Shown piece by piece: positions 8,401 to 40,199 of a stretch of 40,199 nucleotides of DNA; within the stretch, counting starts at the first letter, position 1, and each line of letters opens with the position of its first letter. A program made the translations under genes and the position numbers. The stretch lies in IMG/VR virus record IMGVR_UViG_2681813201_000021. One strand, given 5' to 3'. The DNA is from a virus. Taxonomy: Duplodnaviria; Heunggongvirae; Uroviricota; Caudoviricetes. Under the pieces are notes generated by a model. It was given only the letters and a program-made list of their open reading frames with translations. It had not been told where the DNA came from and did not search any database.

Positions 8401-8889
8401 ATGAGTCTTTTGAATGAAGTTCAGAAATTCATTGAAGCCCATCCGGGCTGTACTTCCGGAGATATTGCGGATGCTTTTGCAGGTTACTCACGGCAGCGCG
8501 TTCTGCAGTCAGCAAGCAAGTTACGTCAGAGTGGGCGTGTGGCTCACCGTTGTGAAGGGGATACACGCAGACATTTCCCGCGCCTGACTGAGAGAGCGCA
8601 GGAGCCGGAACCACAACCAGTTCGTGAAACCAGACCTGTGCGCAATTTCTATGTCGGCACTAACGATCCACGGGTGATTTTGTGCCTGACCCGCCAGGCT
8701 GAAGAACTGGAGTCCAGGGGCCTATACCGTCGTGCTGCAACGGTGTGGATGGCGGCATTCCGTGAAAGCCACTCCCAGCCAGAACGAAACAATTTTCTGG
8801 CGCGTCGTGAGCAGTGCTTACAGAAAAGCAGCAAGCGCGCTGCATCGGGTGAAGAGTGGTATCTGTCAGGGAATTACGTGGGGGCTTAA
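8401..8889 (+). CDS. Hypothetical regulator (PerC-like C-terminal segment, tentative)
   Basis: ATG 8401 with RBS AGGGGGTG; LESRGLYRRAATVWMAAF segment resembles PerC-family proteins (recollection only). Confidence 0.35.
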   Translation: MSLLNEVQKFIEAHPGCTSGDIADAFAGYSRQRVLQSASKLRQSGRVAHRCEGDTRRHFPRLTERAQEPEPQPVRETRPVRNFYVGTNDPRVILCLTRQAEELESRGLYRRAATVWMAAFRESHSQPERNNFLARREQCLQKSSKRAASGEEWYLSGNYVGA

Positions 8890-9542
8890 TGAGTAATAAA
8901 TATTGCCAGGCGCTGGTGGAACTGCGGAACAAACCAGCCCATGAACTGAAGGAAGTGGGCGATCAGTGGCGCACGCCGGACAACATTTTCTGGGGAATTA
9001 ACACCCTGTTTGGCCCGTTTGTTCTGGATCTGTTCACTGACGGTGATAACGCCAAATGTGCTGCGTATTACACGGCGGAAGACAACGCGCTGGCGCATGA
9101 CTGGTCAGAACGTCTTGCGGAGCTAAAAGGTGCTGCCTTTGGTAATCCCCCATACAGCCGCGCCAGTCAGCATGAGGGGCAATACATCACCGGCATGCGT
9201 TACATCATGAAACATGCCAGTGCCATGCGTGATAAGGGCGGGCGCTATGTTTTCCTGATCAAAGCTGCCACCAGCGAATTGTGGTGGCCGGAAGATGCAG
9301 ATCATATTGCTTTTATTCGCGGGCGTATTGGTTTTGAACTGCCTGCCTGGTTTATCCCGAAGGATGAGAAGCAGGTGCCGACAGGCGCTTTCTTCGCTGG
9401 TGCTATTGCTGTTTTCGACAAGACCTGGAAGGGACCGGCAATCAGCTACATCGGGCGCGATGAACTTGAGGCATGTGGTGAGGCGTTTCTGGAGCAGGTT
9501 CGTCAGCAGGCGGAAAAACTGGTCAGGGAGATGGCGGCATGA
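8889..9542 (+). CDS. Phage DNA N6-adenine methyltransferase (Dam-like)
   Basis: NPPY catalytic motif (GNPPYSRA); start ATG 8889 overlaps upstream stop (TAATG). Confidence 0.8.
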   Translation: MSNKYCQALVELRNKPAHELKEVGDQWRTPDNIFWGINTLFGPFVLDLFTDGDNAKCAAYYTAEDNALAHDWSERLAELKGAAFGNPPYSRASQHEGQYITGMRYIMKHASAMRDKGGRYVFLIKAATSELWWPEDADHIAFIRGRIGFELPAWFIPKDEKQVPTGAFFAGAIAVFDKTWKGPAISYIGRDELEACGEAFLEQVRQQAEKLVREMAA

Positions 9543-12440: not shown

Positions 12441-12467
12441 AATAATAAAAGGCGGTAGTACCGCCTT
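12438..12467 (-). terminator. Rho-independent terminator of the minus-strand three-gene operon (also ends the plus-strand Q-like gene)
   Basis: Stem AAGGCGG / CCGCCTT with 5-nt loop (12449-12467); on the minus strand it is followed by UUAUUAUUUUA. Confidence 0.65.
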
Positions 12468-13080
12468 AATGATCGAATCGTTGTATGTTTTCATGGAATC
12501 TACAAAAGTGAATAGATATTTTGAATAGTAAAATGTAGAAACCAACTTGACTTAAAGTTATGGCTTTGCATTTATCATTCAAGAGTTTTTGTAATTCTTC
12601 CGTTGGTAATTGGTATACATCATCAAGAAAAACGATGCATTCTTCTAAGTTGTCTGATTCAGGAAGATAAAAAATATTAGTAATTAACTGCTTCCTTATA
12701 GCATCAATTTTGCTATCTATTGAAGTCTTAGAAACTCCGTTGGAGAGAAGAATAGCTTCGAACTTAGATAAACTTACTAACGGAGCAAAGACTGCACGCA
12801 TTGGCACATCACGATTATTACTTGTATCTATATCGCAACTGTTGCTTAATATAATGCCTCGTGTTTTTTTAGTCCCTTTAATTGAATATACTGTAAGCTC
12901 CTTAAATATATCTCCCTGAAGTGCAGCATTTTTCAGATCATCATGATAATTGCTAAGGTAGTAGTTAGTGTTTTCAGGGAAATCTCTAAGTGCATTTATT
13001 AGCCCTTCTTTTTGATGAGCTGTTAAATAATATGGAATTTGATCTTTGAATTTCTCGATATCAAAAATGTTATTACTCAT
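12466..13080 (-). CDS. Hypothetical protein C of AT-rich operon (204 aa)
   Basis: ATG 13080 lies one codon after the stop of gene B in the same frame; low GC; no recognisable catalytic motif. Confidence 0.6.
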   Translation of the reverse strand: MSNNIFDIEKFKDQIPYYLTAHQKEGLINALRDFPENTNYYLSNYHDDLKNAALQGDIFKELTVYSIKGTKKTRGIILSNSCDIDTSNNRDVPMRAVFAPLVSLSKFEAILLSNGVSKTSIDSKIDAIRKQLITNIFYLPESDNLEECIVFLDDVYQLPTEELQKLLNDKCKAITLSQVGFYILLFKISIHFCRFHENIQRFDH

Positions 13081-13083
13081 CAC

Positions 13084-13428
13084 TTAATCCAAGTATAAAT
13101 CCCACAGTGAAGCATGAACGACTTTATTTATTTCACTGCCTAAAGACACCTGGTTTGTCGATAATTTTTCATAAAAGTTTGTCATCGAGACTGCAAGTCT
13201 TTGATCAACTGAGATTGTGCTCCCTGCTTTATATGTTTGTGTGATGGAATGAACTGAATCGGTAGTTGAAGACTTATACTCCAAAGCGTGATTTTTGACG
13301 ATTAAACTTTGTTGAGGACCATGCTGTTGATTTTGGGCAATGTCTGTTAATGCAGTTATATGCAGACCATATAAAACCAAAGTTAATACTTGAAGTTGAG
13401 CTCGATAAACATGATGAGACGGATACAT
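13084..13428 (-). CDS. Hypothetical protein B of AT-rich operon (114 aa)
   Basis: ATG 13428 preceded by GGTGG RBS, 15 nt after stop of gene A; no recognisable motif. Confidence 0.55.
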   Translation of the reverse strand: MYPSHHVYRAQLQVLTLVLYGLHITALTDIAQNQQHGPQQSLIVKNHALEYKSSTTDSVHSITQTYKAGSTISVDQRLAVSMTNFYEKLSTNQVSLGSEINKVVHASLWDLYLD

Positions 13429-13443
13429 ATCATACCACCATTT

Positions 13444-14193
13444 CTATTTGTAGGATGGTTCTAGTTCTTGAATTGTTGACTCTTTAAGGCAACTAAAGAA
13501 AGCTAATTTATTACAGGAGTGAAGATCATCAAGAATTTTTTTTGGTTCGTTTTTAAACTTATCTATTTCATCAGTATTAGTGATTTGCCTAATGCTGTCT
13601 ATGTCTAGGATTAGTCCTTTTTTATTAAATTCTCCATTATCTGACATGACTAAAGCATGAGATAATATTTGAATTATATTTAGAAATGCGCCTTCATTTT
13701 TATCGATTCTGATATTGATCGGATAATTAGACATAGACTCGCCAGCCATATTTAAGCTGACGTTTAGCTTATCAAATAAATTAGAATCGTCTTCTTTTGG
13801 GAAAAAATCTACATACTTTAATGAGTAGCGGATGATGTTGTCATTTAAATTTAATTTGTTAAGCTCATTTAATACATGAATGATTTTTTCTCTAAAATGA
13901 CTCCACCCTTGATATTTGGTGCTGGTGGATACAACAACACCATGGTCACTTAGTCCAATATAGTACCCTTCGATTTCGAGGCGACTGACAACTGCGTAAT
14001 GTAATTGTTCATCTCCCTCACGAACATTTTTAGGTATTTGACTGGGTGGTAAACTAATTACTGGTTTTGTACAACCTAGAGCGTGAAAAAGAAACCCTGG
14101 AACTATTTCCGATATTTGTGTTTCTTTAGAAAAACGCATTTCGAAAGCAGCTTCGATTACTGGTTGTTTTGATAGAGATGTTGGAATGAGCAT
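13444..14193 (-). CDS. Hypothetical protein A of AT-rich operon (249 aa)
   Basis: First gene of the operon; N-terminal PVIEAAFEMRF recalls an uncharacterised family (possibly TIGR04255-like; recollection, unverified). Confidence 0.6.
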   Translation of the reverse strand: MLIPTSLSKQPVIEAAFEMRFSKETQISEIVPGFLFHALGCTKPVISLPPSQIPKNVREGDEQLHYAVVSRLEIEGYYIGLSDHGVVVSTSTKYQGWSHFREKIIHVLNELNKLNLNDNIIRYSLKYVDFFPKEDDSNLFDKLNVSLNMAGESMSNYPINIRIDKNEGAFLNIIQILSHALVMSDNGEFNKKGLILDIDSIRQITNTDEIDKFKNEPKKILDDLHSCNKLAFFSCLKESTIQELEPSYK

Positions 14194-33765: not shown

Positions 33766-34398
33766 ATGCATCGTATAGACACGAAAACCGCGCAGAAGGA
33801 TAAGTTCGGCGCGGGTAAGAACGGTTTTACCCGTGGTAACCCCCAGACTGGCACGCCTGCCACCGATCTGGATGATGACTACTTTGATATGTTGCAGGAA
33901 GAACTCTGCAGCGTGGTGGAGGCATCCGGTGCCAGTCTGGAGAAGGCGCGGCACGACCAGCTGCTTACCGCGCTTCGTGCGCTGCTGTTAAGCCGCAAGA
34001 ATCCGTTTGGCGATATCAAATCGGATGGCACGGTGAAAACGGCTCTCGAAAACCTTGGTTTGGGAGAAGCCAGATATGTCATTCAGCGAGGAGCTAATGC
34101 CAATGGTGCGTGGATACGCTGGTCAGATGGTGCAATAGAAGTCTTTGGAACGGGGGGTTCTAATGATAATGGACTGGCTAAAGTCGTTTATCCAATTGCG
34201 CTACCTAAGCTTTCACGTTTTATCAGCATAGCGGAAAGAATAGGAACGGATTATGGGGGCACATCTAATAACGTTCACGTTTCAATGATCGTGGATGACC
34301 AGGTCACTAATACCGGTTTTTATGTCCGCTGCCAGATGTACGACGGAACACCATCAACAAGTGCTTTTTCCTGGAGGGTTTATTGTGCGCCTGTTTAA
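33766..34398 (+). CDS. Tail fibre protein (constant N-terminus plus currently expressed variable C-terminus)
   Basis: 210 aa; crossover site lies inside at codons for ENLGLGE (34043-34068); RBS GGAG. Confidence 0.8.
34043..34068. other. Invertase crossover site (left), CTCTCGAAAACC TT GGTTTGGGAGAA
   Basis: 26-bp hix/gix-like site; its right half plus core is repeated in inverted orientation at 35648-35673. Confidence 0.75.
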
Positions 34399-35156: not shown

Positions 35157-35661
35157 CAGGCAGCCCTCACGATATAATTAAAGGCAATGTTACGAGGTCT
35201 GTTTTCTGTCGCTGTAGGAACAACTCTTGAGACATCCAAATTAGCGTAAATATGACGATCTGTTATAGAAACTGATGACTTACCTGTAGATTCAGCTTTT
35301 ATCACAACGGAATCATACATTCCCTCATCATTCCCAAAAAATGCACCAGAGCCATTGCCAAAAAAATACAGTGCTGATATTTCATGCCTTGCACCAATTG
35401 TCCCCGTGATATTTCTGATTGCATCTCCCTGAGAGTTCAATATAGTTCGGCCCGAATCAACCCCACGCCCGTCATCCCAGCCGCGAATAAATTCACCGCG
35501 TAAATCAGGCAATTTATTTGTCGGGTAAGCCTTTGCCAGTTCCGGGTATTCTTCAGCAGAAAAAGCCGCACCATTGCATTTCAGCCAGCCTGTCGGCGGA
35601 GTGGCGGAAGGCCACGGAACAGGCACACCGACAGGTAATGCAGAGCCTTCTCCCAAACCAA
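35156..35661 (-). CDS. Alternative tail-fibre variable C-terminal segment (no own start; expressed only after inversion)
   Basis: Reads from crossover site: ...VGLGEGSALPVGVPVPWPS...GWLKCNGAAFSAEEYPELAKAYP...NIAFNYIVRAA, typical fibre C-terminal domain; stop overlaps tfa' start (ATGA). Confidence 0.7.
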
Positions 35662-35673
35662 CGTTTATGAAAA
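35648..35673. other. Invertase crossover site (right), minus strand reads TTTTCATAAACG TT GGTTTGGGAGAA
   Basis: Matches hixL at about 20 of 26 positions as recalled from memory; shares 15 identical bp with the left site in inverted orientation. Confidence 0.75.
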
Positions 35674-35727: not shown

Positions 35728-36282
35728 ATGCTTATTGGCTATGTACGTGTATCAACAAATGACCAGAATACCGATCTACAACGCAATGCGCTGAACTGTG
35801 CAGGGTGTGAGCTGATTTTTGAAGACAAGATAAGCGGTACAAAGTCCGACAGACCAGGACTGAAAAAGCTGCTCAGGACATTATCGGCAGGTGACACGCT
35901 GGTGGTCTGGAAACTGGACCGACTGGGGCGCAGTATGCGGCATCTTGTCGTGCTGGTGGAGGAGTTGCGCGAACGAGGCATCAACTTTCGTAGTCTGACG
36001 GATTCAATTGATACCAGTACCCCAATGGGGCGCTTTTTCTTTCATGTGATGGGTGCCCTGGCTGAAATGGAGCGTGAACTGATTGTTGAACGAACAAAAG
36101 CTGGACTAGAAGCAGCTCGCGCACAGGGACGAATTGGTGGACGTCGCCCCAAACTTACACCAGAACAATGGGAGCAGGCCGGACGATTAATTGCATCAGG
36201 CGTTCCTCGCCAGAAGGTGGCGATCATCTATGATGTTGGTATATCGACACTGTATAAGAAGTTTCCGGTCGGAGATAAATGA
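35728..36282 (+). CDS. pin: Serine DNA invertase (Pin/Gin/Hin/Cin family)
   Basis: MLIGYVRVSTNDQNTDLQRNAL... with catalytic Ser in the YVRVST motif; close to e14 Pin as recalled; C-terminal HTH. Confidence 0.9.
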   Translation: MLIGYVRVSTNDQNTDLQRNALNCAGCELIFEDKISGTKSDRPGLKKLLRTLSAGDTLVVWKLDRLGRSMRHLVVLVEELRERGINFRSLTDSIDTSTPMGRFFFHVMGALAEMERELIVERTKAGLEAARAQGRIGGRRPKLTPEQWEQAGRLIASGVPRQKVAIIYDVGISTLYKKFPVGDK

Positions 36283-36323
36283 AACCGTAGCACGTCGTAT
36301 GCAAGAAGATCGTGCTGCGGTTT
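36283..36323. terminator. Bidirectional hairpin between convergent pin and GIY-YIG genes
   Basis: AACCGTAGCACG ... CGTGCTGCGGTT stem with one mismatch; T-rich flanks on both strands. Confidence 0.5.
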
Positions 36324-36342
36324 ATGCTTATCACTTAAAGAC

Positions 36343-37161
<819 letters not shown>

Positions 37162-37522
37162 TCATTGCAAGGGCTCACAACCAGTAGTGTTGAGAAAACC
37201 ATCGGAGAAATGAGGCTAAGCCTTTGAATTTACATAGTACAAAAAAGATACTTTTCCTCATAATGTGAGCTAATTTTATGTTTCGTTTGATGATTGGACC
37301 GGTCTCGAAAACCGTAGACACATAGTATGCGTTAATTTATGAACAAACTACTTGTCTGCTGTTTTTCTGTCATTAGTCGTATATAGAATGATTCTCTATG
37401 CCTAACAAAGCATCACCAGTGCTAGATTACGTTGTAGTCACTGTTTAAATATCCAGATAAAACATTTCCTTCTGGGTTGAATGAGTGATAAAGTTTCACC
37501 CATTAGACCCCTTGGAGGAATT

Positions 37523-38956
37523 ATGTCTGAATTTGAAGTGTTGGCACAGCATCTGCTGAAGGAAGCCGAGGCGGAAGAAAAGCTGCGACAGGAAAATGAT
37601 AAAAAGCTTATCGAGAAAGTGCTGGAAATCTATGATCAGAAGTATGTGGCTGAATTACTGAGAAAAGTCGGAAAAAATGAGTGGAGCCGTGAAACCATTA
37701 ACCGCTGGATTAATGGCAAGTGTTTACCAAAATCGTTGACTTCAGTAGAAGAGTCTCTTCTGCGTAAGATGCTACCAGAACCACCTGCAAACCATCCGGA
37801 ATATGCTTTCCGCTTCATTGACTTATTTGCTGGAATTGGAGGGATACGGAAAGGTTTTGAGGCCATTGGAGGCCAGTGTGTTTTTACCAGTGAATGGAAT
37901 AAAGATGCTGTGCGTACATACAAGGCCAACTGGTTTAACGATGAACAGGTGCATAAATTCAATCTCGATATTCGGGAAGTCACGCTGAGTGATAAAACCG
38001 ATGTATTGGAAACGGATGCTTATGCATATATTGATGAGCATGTGCCGGATCATGATGTGCTTCTTGCGGGGTTTCCGTGCCAGCCATTTAGCCTTGCTGG
38101 TGTTAGTAAGAAAAACTCACTTGGTCGTGCGCATGGTTTTGAATGTGAAGCACAAGGAACACTTTTTTTTGACGTGGCACGTATTATACGAGCAAAAAAA
38201 CCGGCAATTTTTGTGCTGGAAAATGTCAAAAATCTGAAGAGCCATGATAAGGGTAAAACTTTCAAAGTCATTATGGAGACCCTTGACGAGCTGGGCTACG
38301 AAGTTGCCGATGCTGCAGAAATGGGAAAAAACGATCCAAAGATTATCGATGGGAAGCATTTTTTGCCTCAGCATCGTGAACGCATTGTTCTGGTCGGATT
38401 TAGACGAGATCTGAATATTCACAAGGGGTTTACCTTGCGTGATATCAGTCGTTTTTATCCGGAACACCGCCCATCATTTGGTGAATTGCTGGAGCCTGTA
38501 GTCGACAGTAAATATATACTTACGCCAAAACTATGGGAGTACCTTTATAACTACGCCAAAAAGCATGCAGCCAAGGGGAATGGTTTTGGCTTTGGGTTGG
38601 TCAATCCTGAGAATAAGGAAAGCATTGCACGCACACTTTCTGCCAGATATCACAAAGACGGATCAGAAATTCTTATTGATCGTGGTTGGGATATGGCAAC
38701 GGGAGAGGCTGACTTTATGAATGAGAGTAATCAGGCTCGTCGACCACGCAGGCTGACTCCCCGAGAGTGCGCACGCCTTATGGGATTTGAAAAACCTGGA
38801 GGGAAACCATTCCGTATTCCGGTTTCAGATACTCAGTCATATCGGCAGTTCGGTAACTCAGTTGTGGTGCCAGTATTTGAAGCTGTTGCCAGACTTCTGG
38901 AACCCTATATCCTCAAAGCTGTTTCTGCTGATGCTGGTAAGACTGGGCAGCCTTGA
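37523..38956 (+). CDS. ecoRIIM: DNA cytosine-5 methyltransferase, M.EcoRII-like (CCWGG family)
   Basis: Motifs [10 protein letters not shown] (I), GFPCQPFS (IV), ENVKNL (VI); sequence closely follows M.EcoRII/Dcm as recalled; RBS GGAGG before ATG 37523. Confidence 0.9.
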
Positions 38957-38962
38957 GAACAT

Positions 38963-38985
38963 CTCCCGGCCTTTTAAGCCGGGAG
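38963..38985. terminator. Bidirectional hairpin between convergent M and R genes
   Basis: CTCCCGGC cttttaa GCCGGGAG. Confidence 0.6.
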
Positions 38986-38990
38986 TCAGC

Positions 38991-40199
38991 CTATGATAGT
39001 TCAGCGTAAAGCTCTATCAGCTCAGTAATGAATGCTCCGAGCGTTATTAATTCTTCTCTAACTGCTTCTGGGTATTTTTTATGTAAAGTTGATGGTACAA
39101 CGAGTCTGACACCAGCATCTTTCATTTCTCGGTATTGTGCTGAAGAAACACCTTCTTGCAGTGTAAATAAATGTACCTGATGGATTTTATCTGCTTCATT
39201 CAGTATCTGACGCCAGCGATCTTTGCAGGTGGTCTTTACTGCCAGCATACGTAAGTTTTCTACAGGAAATTCAACGTTATGATATGCCTCTGCTGAAGGA
39301 AACAGGAAATCTGGTTTTTTATTACCTTCAGTAACTGCCTGAGTGGAGAAATGCCGTAGTCCGTGCTCGATAAAAAGCTTCTCTAGGTGAAGTTCAAGTG
39401 ATTTGCCTGCCCTTGATTTACGTCGATTACTGACAGAGTTGGCTAATGCAATAAACTCATCTACAGAATCGAATCCTTTCTTAATAATATCAAGAACATG
39501 TAATTCCTCGACGAGTAGAAAAATATCATACTCGACACGCCGACGGTCAATCAGTTGCTCATCTGGATCCTTGGAGTTTTTAGCATAATGGCCAGCAGCA
39601 TATTGAATAATTTCGTTTCCAGAAGGAAAACGCTTCTTCCAGTCTTCAGGAATAACATATTTATGATTTACTGGAGTTTGCTGAAGAGACAATCCGCCCA
39701 AAATTTGTCCGGCAGGGCCGGAAATTAGGGTTCCAGGTATGATTTCGCCAATAGCAGACTCGATGATATCCTCTTCATCGGGATTGACGCAGACCCATAT
39801 ATCTACCTCGGAACAGTCAGTGTTCTGTTCGTTTAACCTGAAAGCAAGAATTGTGAGGGCTCCTGTATTTTCAGGGTTCTGTAATGGACTTCCTCTCCCC
39901 CAGCGCGTAATTCTTTTTTCGTTTCGGGTCTTACCAAAATAACGGTTGTTGTAATAAATTGCGCGTGCTTGGGTATCAGGGCAATCATGGGATGATACAT
40001 GCGCAGTAAGGAAGACTGAAGGGTTCAGTTCGCGAGTATGATTGATAGATGGAAAAAGCTTTTCAACGATATTTGAGGGGATATAAAGTCCGACCTGATG
40101 GCCACCTGTTGCGCCTGTGTCGTTTGCAGAAAGGCGTTTGATGTAGATAAAGTAATTCCCGCTTGCGATATCAAGCAGCCAGTTATGAAAAACCGACAT
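38991..40199 (-). CDS. ecoRIIR: Type IIE restriction endonuclease, EcoRII-like
   Basis: 402 aa; N-terminus MSVFHNWLL...YIKRLSANDTGATGGHQVGLYIP and most of the length follow R.EcoRII as recalled; start codon is the last 3 nt of the window. Confidence 0.9.
   Translation of the reverse strand: MSVFHNWLLDIASGNYFIYIKRLSANDTGATGGHQVGLYIPSNIVEKLFPSINHTRELNPSVFLTAHVSSHDCPDTQARAIYYNNRYFGKTRNEKRITRWGRGSPLQNPENTGALTILAFRLNEQNTDCSEVDIWVCVNPDEEDIIESAIGEIIPGTLISGPAGQILGGLSLQQTPVNHKYVIPEDWKKRFPSGNEIIQYAAGHYAKNSKDPDEQLIDRRRVEYDIFLLVEELHVLDIIKKGFDSVDEFIALANSVSNRRKSRAGKSLELHLEKLFIEHGLRHFSTQAVTEGNKKPDFLFPSAEAYHNVEFPVENLRMLAVKTTCKDRWRQILNEADKIHQVHLFTLQEGVSSAQYREMKDAGVRLVVPSTLHKKYPEAVREELITLGAFITELIELYAELS

Follow-up and report, generated by a model that had tools for sequence, protein, structure and literature searches.

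A predicted EcoRII-family restriction-modification system in the accessory cargo of an e14-like Escherichia coli prophage

EcoRII is among the oldest studied restriction enzymes. Two genes resembling this system lie at the right end of the window analyzed here, a stretch of 40,199 nucleotides of viral DNA, and their presence raises three questions: whether they form an intact restriction-modification (R-M) pair, whether they belong to the prophage at whose edge they sit, and what they can still do in a host that methylates the same sites. The preliminary description of this DNA had called them a complete EcoRII-like R-M system, and the full two-domain architecture of the endonuclease, the conservation of all functional residues, and the strong purifying selection described below support that view. 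On the sequence evidence, we interpret the locus as an intact type II (subtype IIE) R-M system of the EcoRII family, carried as accessory cargo by a tRNA-Thr-integrated, e14-like prophage, with a probability of about 0.87.

The methyltransferase and endonuclease genes

The M gene (37523-38956, plus strand) is a complete open reading frame encoding a Dcm/M.EcoRII-type C5-cytosine methyltransferase of 477 amino acids, identical to RefSeq WP_001288444.1, which has the same length. Pfam identifies a DNA_meth_N domain at residues 28-84 (PF18284, E = 7e-27) and the catalytic part at residues 96-457 (PF00145, E = 4e-78), the NCBIfam model PRK10458 for the Dcm subfamily scores 927 bits with a cut-off of 710, and the Dcm-type enzyme of PDB entry 3ME5 is matched with E = 4e-209. 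The C5-methyltransferase motifs are found at residues 102 (FAGIG), 185 (PCQ, with the catalytic Cys186), 233 (ENV), 283 (QHRER), and 444 (GNSV). Alignment with the M.EcoRII-type protein of an IncN plasmid shows 432 identical residues out of 474 (91%), ungapped and with the variable/target-recognition region included; based on this gap-free identity, the predicted target of M is the inner cytosine of CCWGG. Initiation at the in-frame ATG at 37481 is unlikely: a GGAGG ribosome-binding site (37512-37516) is located 6 nt before 37523, and a stop codon closes the upstream extension in the homologue from Enterobacter ludwigii.

A methyltransferase of this type could also be a housekeeping Dcm. The chromosomal Dcm-Vsr system (PDB 3ME5-type) shares with M the NCBIfam subfamily, the N-terminal domain, and the predicted CCWGG target. 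Nevertheless, chromosomal dcm is only ~69% identical to the M gene at the nucleotide level and M is mobile; furthermore, dcm has an overlapping vsr gene, whereas no vsr-like open reading frame is present after M and a convergent endonuclease gene follows 34 nt on instead. Because of this missing overlap and the convergent endonuclease gene in its place, we assign M to the R-M type rather than to housekeeping dcm.

The R gene (38991-40199, minus strand) is likewise a complete open reading frame, encoding a type IIE restriction endonuclease of the EcoRII family with 402 amino acids, identical to RefSeq WP_000110239.1. An N-terminal effector DNA-binding domain is followed by a C-terminal PD-(D/E)XK catalytic domain, and Pfam places EcoRII-N at residues 16-163 and EcoRII-C at residues 227-391, both far over the cut-off. 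Residues 1-401 align without gaps to crystallised EcoRII (PDB 1NA6), with 346/401 identical (86%, E = 1e-242). Frameshifts relative to functional EcoRII, which would have undermined the initial reading, are absent, as are internal stops. As had been reported, the stretch ends at the R start codon, its last position being the A of that codon. From this annotated start R has 402 amino acids, compared to 404 for EcoRII; a second candidate ATG two codons upstream, beyond the stretch, would yield the 404-residue EcoRII numbering.

We compared R with the published list of catalytic and CCWGG-contact residues of EcoRII (PMC2770665). All four active-site residues (Glu271, Asp299, Lys324, and Glu337 in EcoRII numbering) are kept at the aligned positions, the CC:GG half-site readers Lys328, Asp329, and Arg330 together with Arg262 are unchanged, and 13 contacts of the N-terminal domain are identical (Asn28, His36, Gln37, Tyr41, Arg81, Tyr85, Lys92, Thr93, Arg94, Glu96, Arg98, Thr100, and Arg101). 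The 55 positions at which R differs from 1NA6 include no CC:GG reader and no effector-domain contact. This residue conservation suggests that R would cleave CCWGG, that cleavage would need a second bound site, and that it would be blocked by C5-methylation of the inner cytosine. The C-terminal domain also shares its fold and a weak similarity with Ecl18kI and PspGI, which could point to a specificity other than CCWGG, e.g. CCNGG or CCSGG as in the SsoII/Ecl18kI relatives. We give this possibility a negligible chance, given that the matches to Ecl18kI and PspGI have E = 1e-4 versus 1e-242 for EcoRII, that the EcoRII base-contact residues are unchanged in both domains, and that the 91% identity of M to the IncN M.EcoRII type extends across the variable region.

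The EcoRII system of IncN plasmids (PDB 1NA6/3HQF/3HQG; M.EcoRII) resembles the prophage version in its convergent gene order, 34-35-nt spacer, hairpin stem, and ~80-nt leaders before each start codon, as well as in the ungapped protein identities (86% for R and 91% for M) with identical catalytic and recognition residues. In contrast, the nucleotide sequences are ~80% identical with synonymous sites near saturation, and the prophage version therefore represents an old, separate lineage. It is chromosomal and found on prophages and a P4-like satellite, whereas the IncN version is carried by a conjugative plasmid. Compared to diverged EcoRII systems, dN/dS is 0.03-0.05 in M and R alike, again with synonymous sites near saturation, a pattern indicating that both genes are under strong purifying selection.

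Gene layout and the spacer hairpin

M and R were confirmed as two complete, convergent open reading frames, with 34 nt between their stop codons (38957-38990). The hairpin previously proposed between their 3' ends is present at 38963-38985 (CTCCCGGC-CTTTTAA-GCCGGGAG) and consists of an 8-bp GC stem and a 7-nt loop. In a 56-nt context it folds with -19.3 and -20.4 kcal/mol on the two strands, the corresponding z-scores of -1.5 to -1.8 being modest. When three diverged systems were compared, the stem was found to be kept in the IncN-plasmid and E. ludwigii EcoRII systems, whereas the flanks and the loop differ; it is because of this conservation of the stem, and not because of the folding energy, that we retain the hairpin as a feature. 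The spacer hairpin has no T-run and the terminator scan made no call for it. It is conserved, yet it is not a canonical intrinsic terminator, and its role is probably that of a two-way transcription stop common to both genes or of an RNA 3'-end stabiliser.

No open reading frame of plausible size for a controller (C) gene was found in 37117-37523. The locus has the layout of an EcoRII-type operon, in which M and R converge on a common 3' hairpin and a C gene is absent. The M leader and promoter region (37441-37522, plus strand) is conserved with plasmid EcoRII systems: homology to these systems (~80% nucleotide identity overall) starts 82 nt before the M ATG, and the sequences are unrelated further upstream. 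This region is a candidate autorepression site, M.EcoRII being known to repress itself via its N-terminal domain (reviewed in PMC3874152). In autoregulated methyltransferases of the M.EcoRII and M.SsoII class, the N-terminal domain binds an operator that overlaps the M promoter. An inverted-repeat search of the M upstream region found no operator, and scanning for consensus promoters yielded none on the forward strand ahead of M. The R promoter is located outside the stretch.

Position on the prophage and spread of the block

The inner edge of the slot that holds the R-M pair is formed by a pinE-type serine invertase gene (35728-36282, plus strand; Pfam Resolvase and HTH_7), annotated as pinE in homologous genomes. 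Its crossover sites are inverted repeats at 34050-34069 and 35647-35666, and both orientations of the segment inverted by pinE are found among genomes. Between pinE and M lies a GIY-YIG gene (36343-37116, minus strand) that we identify as the type IV endonuclease PD-T4-3/CMoRE: the PADLOC model PD-T4-3 covers residues 1-256 of 256 (E = 2e-140), and CMoRE of E. coli O157:H7 (PDB 9U75) is matched over residues 1-257 (E = 4e-172). The likeness to characterised CMoRE is full-length and includes the GIY-YIG domain and the C-terminal sensing domain. CMoRE is a type IV endonuclease acting on 5hmC and glucosyl-5hmC DNA (PMC12923530). The suggestion that the pair is part of a defence island is thus borne out, since its neighbour is a validated defence gene and related prophages have further defence genes at this position. 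Among otherwise homologous prophages, the content between the Pin invertase and att differs, being CMoRE alone, CMoRE with R-M, CMoRE with R-M and AbiTii, Ppl, RnlAB, or McrA (e14).

Prophage e14 of E. coli K-12 belongs to the same family (ymfQ, ymfR, an invertible tail-fibre segment, and pinE) and its slot between pinE and att likewise holds a restriction gene, mcrA. The mcrA product is a methyl-directed type IV enzyme that stands alone, whereas here CMoRE, of another type IV family, is found together with a full type II R-M system. Moreover, e14 sits in icd, whereas the prophages with R-M are found at tRNA-Thr or ssrA. The orphan Dam-like methyltransferase mentioned in the preliminary description is real: a phage-type N6-adenine methyltransferase gene is located in the early region of the same prophage (8889-9542, plus strand; Pfam PF05869 Dam, E = 3e-45), PADLOC MTase_II matches it over its full length from residue 12 of the longer open reading frame, and in the annotation of a homologous prophage its flanking genes are regulators and RusA, with no nuclease partner.

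The pair had been described as lying on or abutting the prophage; the first holds and the second does not. Since the stretch stops at the R start, the att position was read in near-identical genomes. In three of these, attR is a partial tRNA-Thr repeat of 48 nt located ~2.1 kb past R, and the true prophage end therefore lies past the window. The R-M pair is within the att repeats and therefore rides on the prophage. In a tandem prophage array, every unit is bounded by its own tRNA-Thr repeat, and in sister prophages at ssrA the pair is located between two ssrA cores. The R-M pair is accessory cargo, located in the right arm of an e14-like E. coli prophage integrated at tRNA-Thr.

Of 5426 complete E. 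coli genomes, 244 contain a 3.9-kb block with the pair at ≥99% identity. The R-M cassette has been taken up in at least three element contexts: tRNA-Thr prophages, the sister prophages at ssrA, and a P4-like satellite. Its GC content is 43% versus 51% for the prophage, which marks it as acquired DNA. The left border of the mobile R-M block (37297-37330, plus strand), located from the divergence point between strains and a motif search, comprises a remnant of a tRNA-Ser anticodon arm (37297-37315) overlapped by a hairpin-repeat motif (37307-37330). Strains with only the GIY-YIG gene part from R-M carriers at ~37317 and then run on as the 3' part of a tRNA-Ser gene, and the match of the P4-like satellite copy starts at 37300. 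The right flank consists of a 28-nt ssrA 3' end and ~156 nt resembling the sequence after ssrA. The terminator and these ~156 nt, which precede the R leader, are not counted as cassette; we consider them an arm of the attachment region, because they resemble the post-ssrA sequence of most E. coli. An ARAGORN scan of the window and the flank was negative for tRNA and tmRNA genes, and Rfam gave only a weak tmRNA 3'-end match on the fossil core. The 24-nt border motif, partly similar to a Pin crossover half-site, was also considered as a mark of Pin-mediated capture and rejected; it is part of a hairpin repeat that ordinary intergenic regions of the chromosome contain as well, and the real pix sites have a different sequence.

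These borders bear on whether the pair is instead an independent islet of the chromosome, or what is left of some other element, beside the prophage. The fossil attachment-site pieces flanking the cassette (tRNA-Ser on the left, the ssrA 3' end with ~156 nt on the right), a GC content below that of the prophage, and the occurrence of the R-M in a P4-like satellite would all fit such an origin. We nevertheless give it a slim chance, as the pair is inside the att repeat in tRNA-Thr prophages, with each tandem unit bounded by its own repeat, is between the two ssrA cores in the sister prophages, and is accompanied by pinE and CMoRE in almost all carriers.

This frequent association does not make CMoRE and the R-M one system. 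In an even sample along the ranked list of 1022 matching records, ~60% have the GIY-YIG gene without the R-M, and the P4-like satellite has the R-M without the GIY-YIG gene, the two being separate, independent modules. It is fairly unlikely that CMoRE and the R-M form a deliberate pair reading the chemical state of cytosine, with the R-M block also relocating as a unit, time and again, between the cargo slots of prophages and satellites by attachment-site recombination. That reading is based on the co-location of the genes, on the block being common to three contexts, and on the fossil tRNA-Ser and ssrA att pieces. According to it, unmodified CCWGG would be cut by R and hydroxymethylated or glucosylated DNA by CMoRE, whereas 5-methylated DNA would be spared.

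Outside chromosomal elements, we rejected a plasmid location for this R-M variant: one of three near-identical "plasmid" matches was inspected, and since it carries paoABCD and ecp genes, we regard it as a mislabelled chromosomal piece. A nucleotide search of the phage collection for the R-M returned nothing. The protein search retrieved only distant homologues, from Burkholderia phage KL3 (catalytic half) and two faecal contigs, and no sequenced phage of the collection has a full-length EcoRII-type enzyme. Phage KL3, a P2-like phage (PMC3091744), carries an EcoRII-C/Dcm pair; its nuclease is EcoRII-related but comprises the catalytic half only (residues 169-395, 39% identity), without the effector domain.

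Restriction in Dcm-positive hosts

By analogy with the characterised members of the family, M would methylate the inner C of CCWGG, and R would be auto-inhibited, with cleavage 5' of the first C starting only once its N-terminal domain has bound a second unmethylated CCWGG. DNA that enters the cell with several such sites would then be destroyed. M would probably repress its own promoter via its N-terminal domain, and the hairpin would probably separate the convergent M and R transcripts. A lysogen could benefit by restricting DNA from Dcm-negative sources, while the adjacent CMoRE would attack hydroxymethylcytosine phages, and only DNA with 5-methylated CCWGG would get past both systems.

How much of this benefit is realized depends on the host, since a dcm-like sequence is present in 5367 of 5426 E. 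coli genomes. Two R-M carriers among the matches listed each have a second dcm-like locus; as the carriers checked also have host dcm, M is redundant for self-protection. Furthermore, the DNA of the host and of most coliphages grown in E. coli is already methylated at CCWGG, and the defence benefit is therefore limited. We also performed the count of CCWGG sites suggested in the preliminary description. The prophage contains 86 sites, where 76 are expected from base composition, 68 ± 8 from dinucleotide shuffles, and 122 from a third-order Markov model; there is no clear avoidance, and these counts show no footprint of past restriction pressure on the prophage. The R-M block itself contains 2 sites versus 3.5-6.8 expected, numbers too small to interpret.

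These observations make it possible, if somewhat unlikely, that Dcm-positive E. coli carry the R-M as a largely neutralised passenger that provides little defence or addiction and is kept mainly by hitch-hiking with the prophage and CMoRE. In addition to the near-universal dcm, the two loci in the listed carriers, and the lack of CCWGG avoidance, this explanation is favored by the report that killing upon EcoRII loss is attenuated by Dcm (PMC3874152) and by the ≥99% identity of every copy, which fits recent spread rather than long residence. However, the dN/dS of 0.03-0.05 in both genes indicates that the lineage has long been under functional constraint, the six copies of R examined are all intact, the cassette was acquired by at least three element contexts, and DNA from Dcm-negative donors would still be restricted.

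A related explanation is that the main role is addiction, with post-segregational killing stabilising the prophage, rather than anti-phage defence. EcoRII is a documented post-segregational killer (PMC3874152) and the pair is at the very end of the element, adjoining att. Nevertheless, this killing is reported to be cancelled by resident Dcm, which methylates identical sites (PMC3874152), the carriers checked have dcm, and the adjacent cargo consists of defence genes, not stability genes, such that we consider this role very unlikely. An intact EcoRII-family R-M system carried as prophage cargo remains our preferred reading.

In summary, neither the R-M system nor the type of location in which it is found is new: the pair is real, ordinary, and already annotated. 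RefSeq entries identical to its two proteins are found across hundreds of genomes, and the R-M would be labelled by standard tools for finding defence systems. The slot between pinE and att in e14-family prophages is documented as a defence-gene slot, holding McrA, CMoRE, EcoRII-type R-M, RnlAB, Ppl, or AbiTii, and one R-M block is common to a P4-like satellite and to prophages using two different attachment sites. The occurrence of this R-M alongside host Dcm illustrates, in nature, a proposal from the literature, namely that a selfish R-M is disarmed by a solitary methylase, and it raises the practical question of what such an R-M still restricts in Dcm-positive hosts.

The methyltransferase and endonuclease genes and their control

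The right end of the window holds two complete, convergent open reading frames separated by a 34-nt spacer, a plus-strand gene for a 477-aa methyltransferase (M, window 37523-38956) and a minus-strand gene for a 402-aa endonuclease (R, window 38991-40199). Pfam places DNA_meth_N (residues 28-84) and DNA_methylase (residues 96-457) domains in M and EcoRII-N and EcoRII-C domains in R. M scores 927 bits against NCBIfam PRK10458, the Dcm subfamily (cut-off, 710 bits), and residues 1-401 of R align without a gap to the crystallised EcoRII chain 1NA6 (E = 1e-242; 346/401 identical); against PADLOC models, each protein exceeds 760 bits. These results bear out the complete EcoRII-like restriction-modification (R-M) system of the preliminary description. 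As the start of M we prefer position 37523, probably used rather than the in-frame ATG at 37481 because GGAGG lies 6 nt upstream of it, the Enterobacter ludwigii homologue has a stop codon within the upstream extension, and the RefSeq annotation gives 477 aa. The window's last position corresponds to the A that opens the R start codon, as had been stated; in a near-identical genome, a further ATG two codons upstream would yield a 404-aa form (EcoRII residue numbering).

The structural work on EcoRII (PMC2770665) names Glu271, Asp299, Lys324, and Glu337 as the active site, Lys328, Asp329, and Arg330 as the CC:GG readers, Arg262 as the backbone clamp for the flipped base pair, and thirteen residues as effector-domain contacts. 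R keeps every one of these unchanged, with 0 of its 55 substitutions relative to 1NA6 falling on them, and has the wild-type arginine at position 88, where the 1NA6 crystal form carries a mutation. The FAGIG, PCQ (with Cys186), ENV, QHRER, and GNSV motifs are all found in M, which is identical to an IncN-plasmid methyltransferase at 432 of 474 positions, gap-free; the endonuclease remnant of that plasmid has a start identical to the EcoRII crystal sequence. In comparisons with the plasmid systems, M gives a dN/dS of 0.033-0.041 and R one of 0.046, at a pS of ~0.63-0.67; selection has therefore preserved the function of both genes across a long divergence. We infer with high confidence that R would be a CCWGG-specific, methyl-sensitive, two-site-dependent enzyme and M its cognate C5-methyltransferase.

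In plasmid pA1.S1.126.c2 (IncN), the gene for the canonical EcoRII endonuclease (comparison record L007, 4550-5757) has a frameshift, and the methyltransferase gene is intact. This plasmid system exemplifies decay toward an orphan methylase.

The hairpin that the two genes had been said to share, CTCCCGGC-CTTTTAA-GCCGGGAG (window 38963-38985), is present between their 3' ends by sequence and folding, and its stem is preserved in the EcoRII systems of the IncN plasmid and E. ludwigii, with variable loop and flanks. It has no T-run, however, and the intrinsic-terminator scan makes no call there; position and conservation are thus what point to a possible transcription stop. Similarity to the plasmid EcoRII systems covers a leader of 82 nt ahead of the M start codon and one of ~80 nt ahead of that of R; sequence beyond these leaders is unrelated. 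The functional unit thus measures ~2.84 kb and runs from window 37441 to a point ~80 nt outside the window. Modification enzymes of the M.EcoRII class repress their own promoter via an N-terminal helix-turn-helix domain (review PMC3874152, citing M.EcoRII work), and the N-terminal domain of this class is found in M. Judging from this literature, M may be autorepressed through that domain; an operator repeat and a consensus promoter were sought in its upstream region and neither was found. The system contains no controller-protein gene.

Prophage borders and neighbouring genes

The window opens on a tyrosine integrase stop codon; the integrase region shares 99% nucleotide identity with that of prophages directly adjoining a tRNA-Thr gene downstream of proA. 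The prophage is e14-like, with ymfL, ymfQ, ymfR, an HK97-type head, a contractile tail, an invertible tail-fibre segment, and the serine invertase gene pinE (window 35728-36282, plus strand). Inverted repeats of 20 nt, 95% complementary (window 34050-34069 and 35647-35666), flank the 1.6-kb invertible segment served by pinE, which in other genomes occurs in reverse orientation or with other fibre-tip cassettes. In three genomes with this prophage, an attR-type repeat, a copy of at least 48 nt of the tRNA-Thr 3' end, lies right of the cargo region and immediately precedes a truncated LysR gene and paoD. The position of attR in near-identical genomes thus indicates that the R-M system is cargo within the prophage borders and that the prophage extends beyond the window end; of the earlier wording, "on or abutting" the prophage, the first part stands and the second does not.

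In strain 40EC, attR lies ~2.1 kb past R, following the gene for a 379-aa protein just past the window (comparison record L001, 24460-25599, minus strand; also in record L009). This protein has no Pfam or PADLOC match and, judged by the slot that it occupies, is a candidate uncharacterised defence gene product. In TUM10008, genes for a DUF6650 protein and AbiTii intervene before attR, and in ACN002 a Ppl-type ATPase stands in place of the entire GIY-YIG and R-M block.

The GIY-YIG protein (window 36343-37116, minus strand) matches PADLOC PD-T4-3 over its full length (E = 2e-140) and has a handful of differences from the crystallised CMoRE of E. coli O157:H7 (PDB 9U75; E = 4e-172), recently described as a type IV endonuclease that degrades T-even phage DNA containing 5hmC or glucosyl-5hmC (PMC12923530) and active in a native host (PMC12409345). 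In a sample drawn evenly from the 1022 matching records, many genomes have this gene without the R-M system; the two are therefore independent modules, CMoRE being in many more genomes. Since e14 of K-12 has mcrA between pinE and the attachment site, and a further prophage, linked to the tmRNA gene ssrA, has rnlAB there, the stretch from the Pin invertase to the attachment site is a defence-gene slot of this prophage family, in keeping with the defence-gene neighbourhood proposed beside the invertase.

The orphan Dam-like methyltransferase reported for the same prophage was also recovered (PF05869, window 8889-9542); annotation of a homologous prophage shows no nuclease partner and places early-region regulators and a RusA gene around it. 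Between the Q antiterminator and holin genes, a classic moron position, lie three opposite-strand genes for 205, 114, and 249 aa (window 12466-14193, minus strand) with no Pfam or PADLOC match; a homologue of the last is labelled TIGR04255 family protein in RefSeq. A 331-aa early-region protein (window 1732-2727, minus strand) partially matches PADLOC SspD (PAPS-reductase-like; E = 2e-14), its counterpart in homologous prophages is annotated as a PAPS reductase family protein, and no phosphorothioation-system partner genes were seen.

Copies at ssrA and in a satellite

O103:H2 strain FWSEC0007 and strain CE10 contain a sister prophage that shares its tail, pinE, GIY-YIG, M, and R genes with this one and differs in its integrase. 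It is located at ssrA, with 235 nt from the R start to the ssrA 3' end and a second ssrA core of 32 nt at the opposite end of the element, and the R-M genes are its last. In the R-M-bearing tRNA-Thr prophages, a 28-nt fossil ssrA 3' end (L001 24135-24162, 235-262 nt outside the window) and ~156 nt like the post-ssrA sequence of most E. coli (L001 23980-24134, with the strong terminator AAAAGCCCGCTTATGCGGGCTTTTTGTTTTT) sit upstream of the R leader, between it and further cargo. The right arm of these prophages is thus a mosaic derived from an ssrA-type relative. The mosaic flank is found in ~108 genomes; other carriers have the system directly at ssrA.

At the left border, strains with the GIY-YIG gene and no R-M system diverge at ~window 37317, where they run on into the entire 3' portion of a tRNA-Ser gene (comparison record L004, 7985-8060), apparently a further fossil attachment site. 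R-M carriers retain just an anticodon-arm piece of that tRNA gene (window 37297-37315). A P4-like satellite of E. coli DS26-1 has the R-M block at 99.5% identity over a stretch that begins at window 37300 and runs 242 nt beyond the window; there (record L006, 8001-11146) it lies, without CMoRE, between a decayed SOS-peptidase gene and a primase-helicase gene, a known type of satellite defence hotspot.

The hairpin repeat CCGCAGCACG-TCGTATGCAAGAA-CGTGCTGCGG follows pinE and the ssrA fossil and precedes M; copies also lie in ordinary intergenic DNA of the chromosome, close to ykgJ and ykgR (all sites: window 36282-36330 and 37307-37330; L001 24156-24200, 32997, and 42373). A family of small dispersed repeats or of terminators may account for it. 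Of three near-identical matches in the plasmid collection, H26 (L009), the one inspected, is labelled a 30-kb plasmid and was rejected as such, being a chromosomal piece with the ecp fimbrial operon, paoABCD, yagU, and ykgJ; the other two are H27 and H28 (44 kb). H26 at least has to be left out of any tally of plasmids with this R-M system.

Prevalence and host Dcm

M and R are identical to RefSeq WP_001288444.1 (DNA cytosine methyltransferase) and WP_000110239.1 (type II restriction endonuclease), and 244 of 5426 complete genomes contain the 3.9-kb GIY-YIG, M, and R block at an identity of at least 99%. A literature search found no paper on this prophage-borne EcoRII variant, and a full-length EcoRII homologue was absent from the isolated phage genomes in the collection searched. 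Nothing in the R-M system, in its layout, or in the type of place where it lies is new, and the finding is ordinary; the original observation is confirmed and its interpretation supported, with refinements on the prophage location, the ssrA and satellite copies, and the neighbours.

A sensitive nucleotide search with M as query detected dcm-like sequence (~69% identity) in 5367 of the 5426 genomes, and two listed carriers of a 99.9% M copy have two loci each; self-protection by M is therefore redundant with host Dcm. Dcm is reported to attenuate killing after EcoRII loss (PMC3874152). The site count proposed as a check gave 86 CCWGG sites in the prophage (2.4 per kb), not below composition or dinucleotide-shuffle expectation and lower only than a third-order Markov estimate. 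The prophage thus shows no sign of CCWGG avoidance and relies on methylation. Phages raised on ordinary E. coli have their CCWGG sites already methylated, so the practical targets of this R-M system are DNA of Dcm-negative origin.
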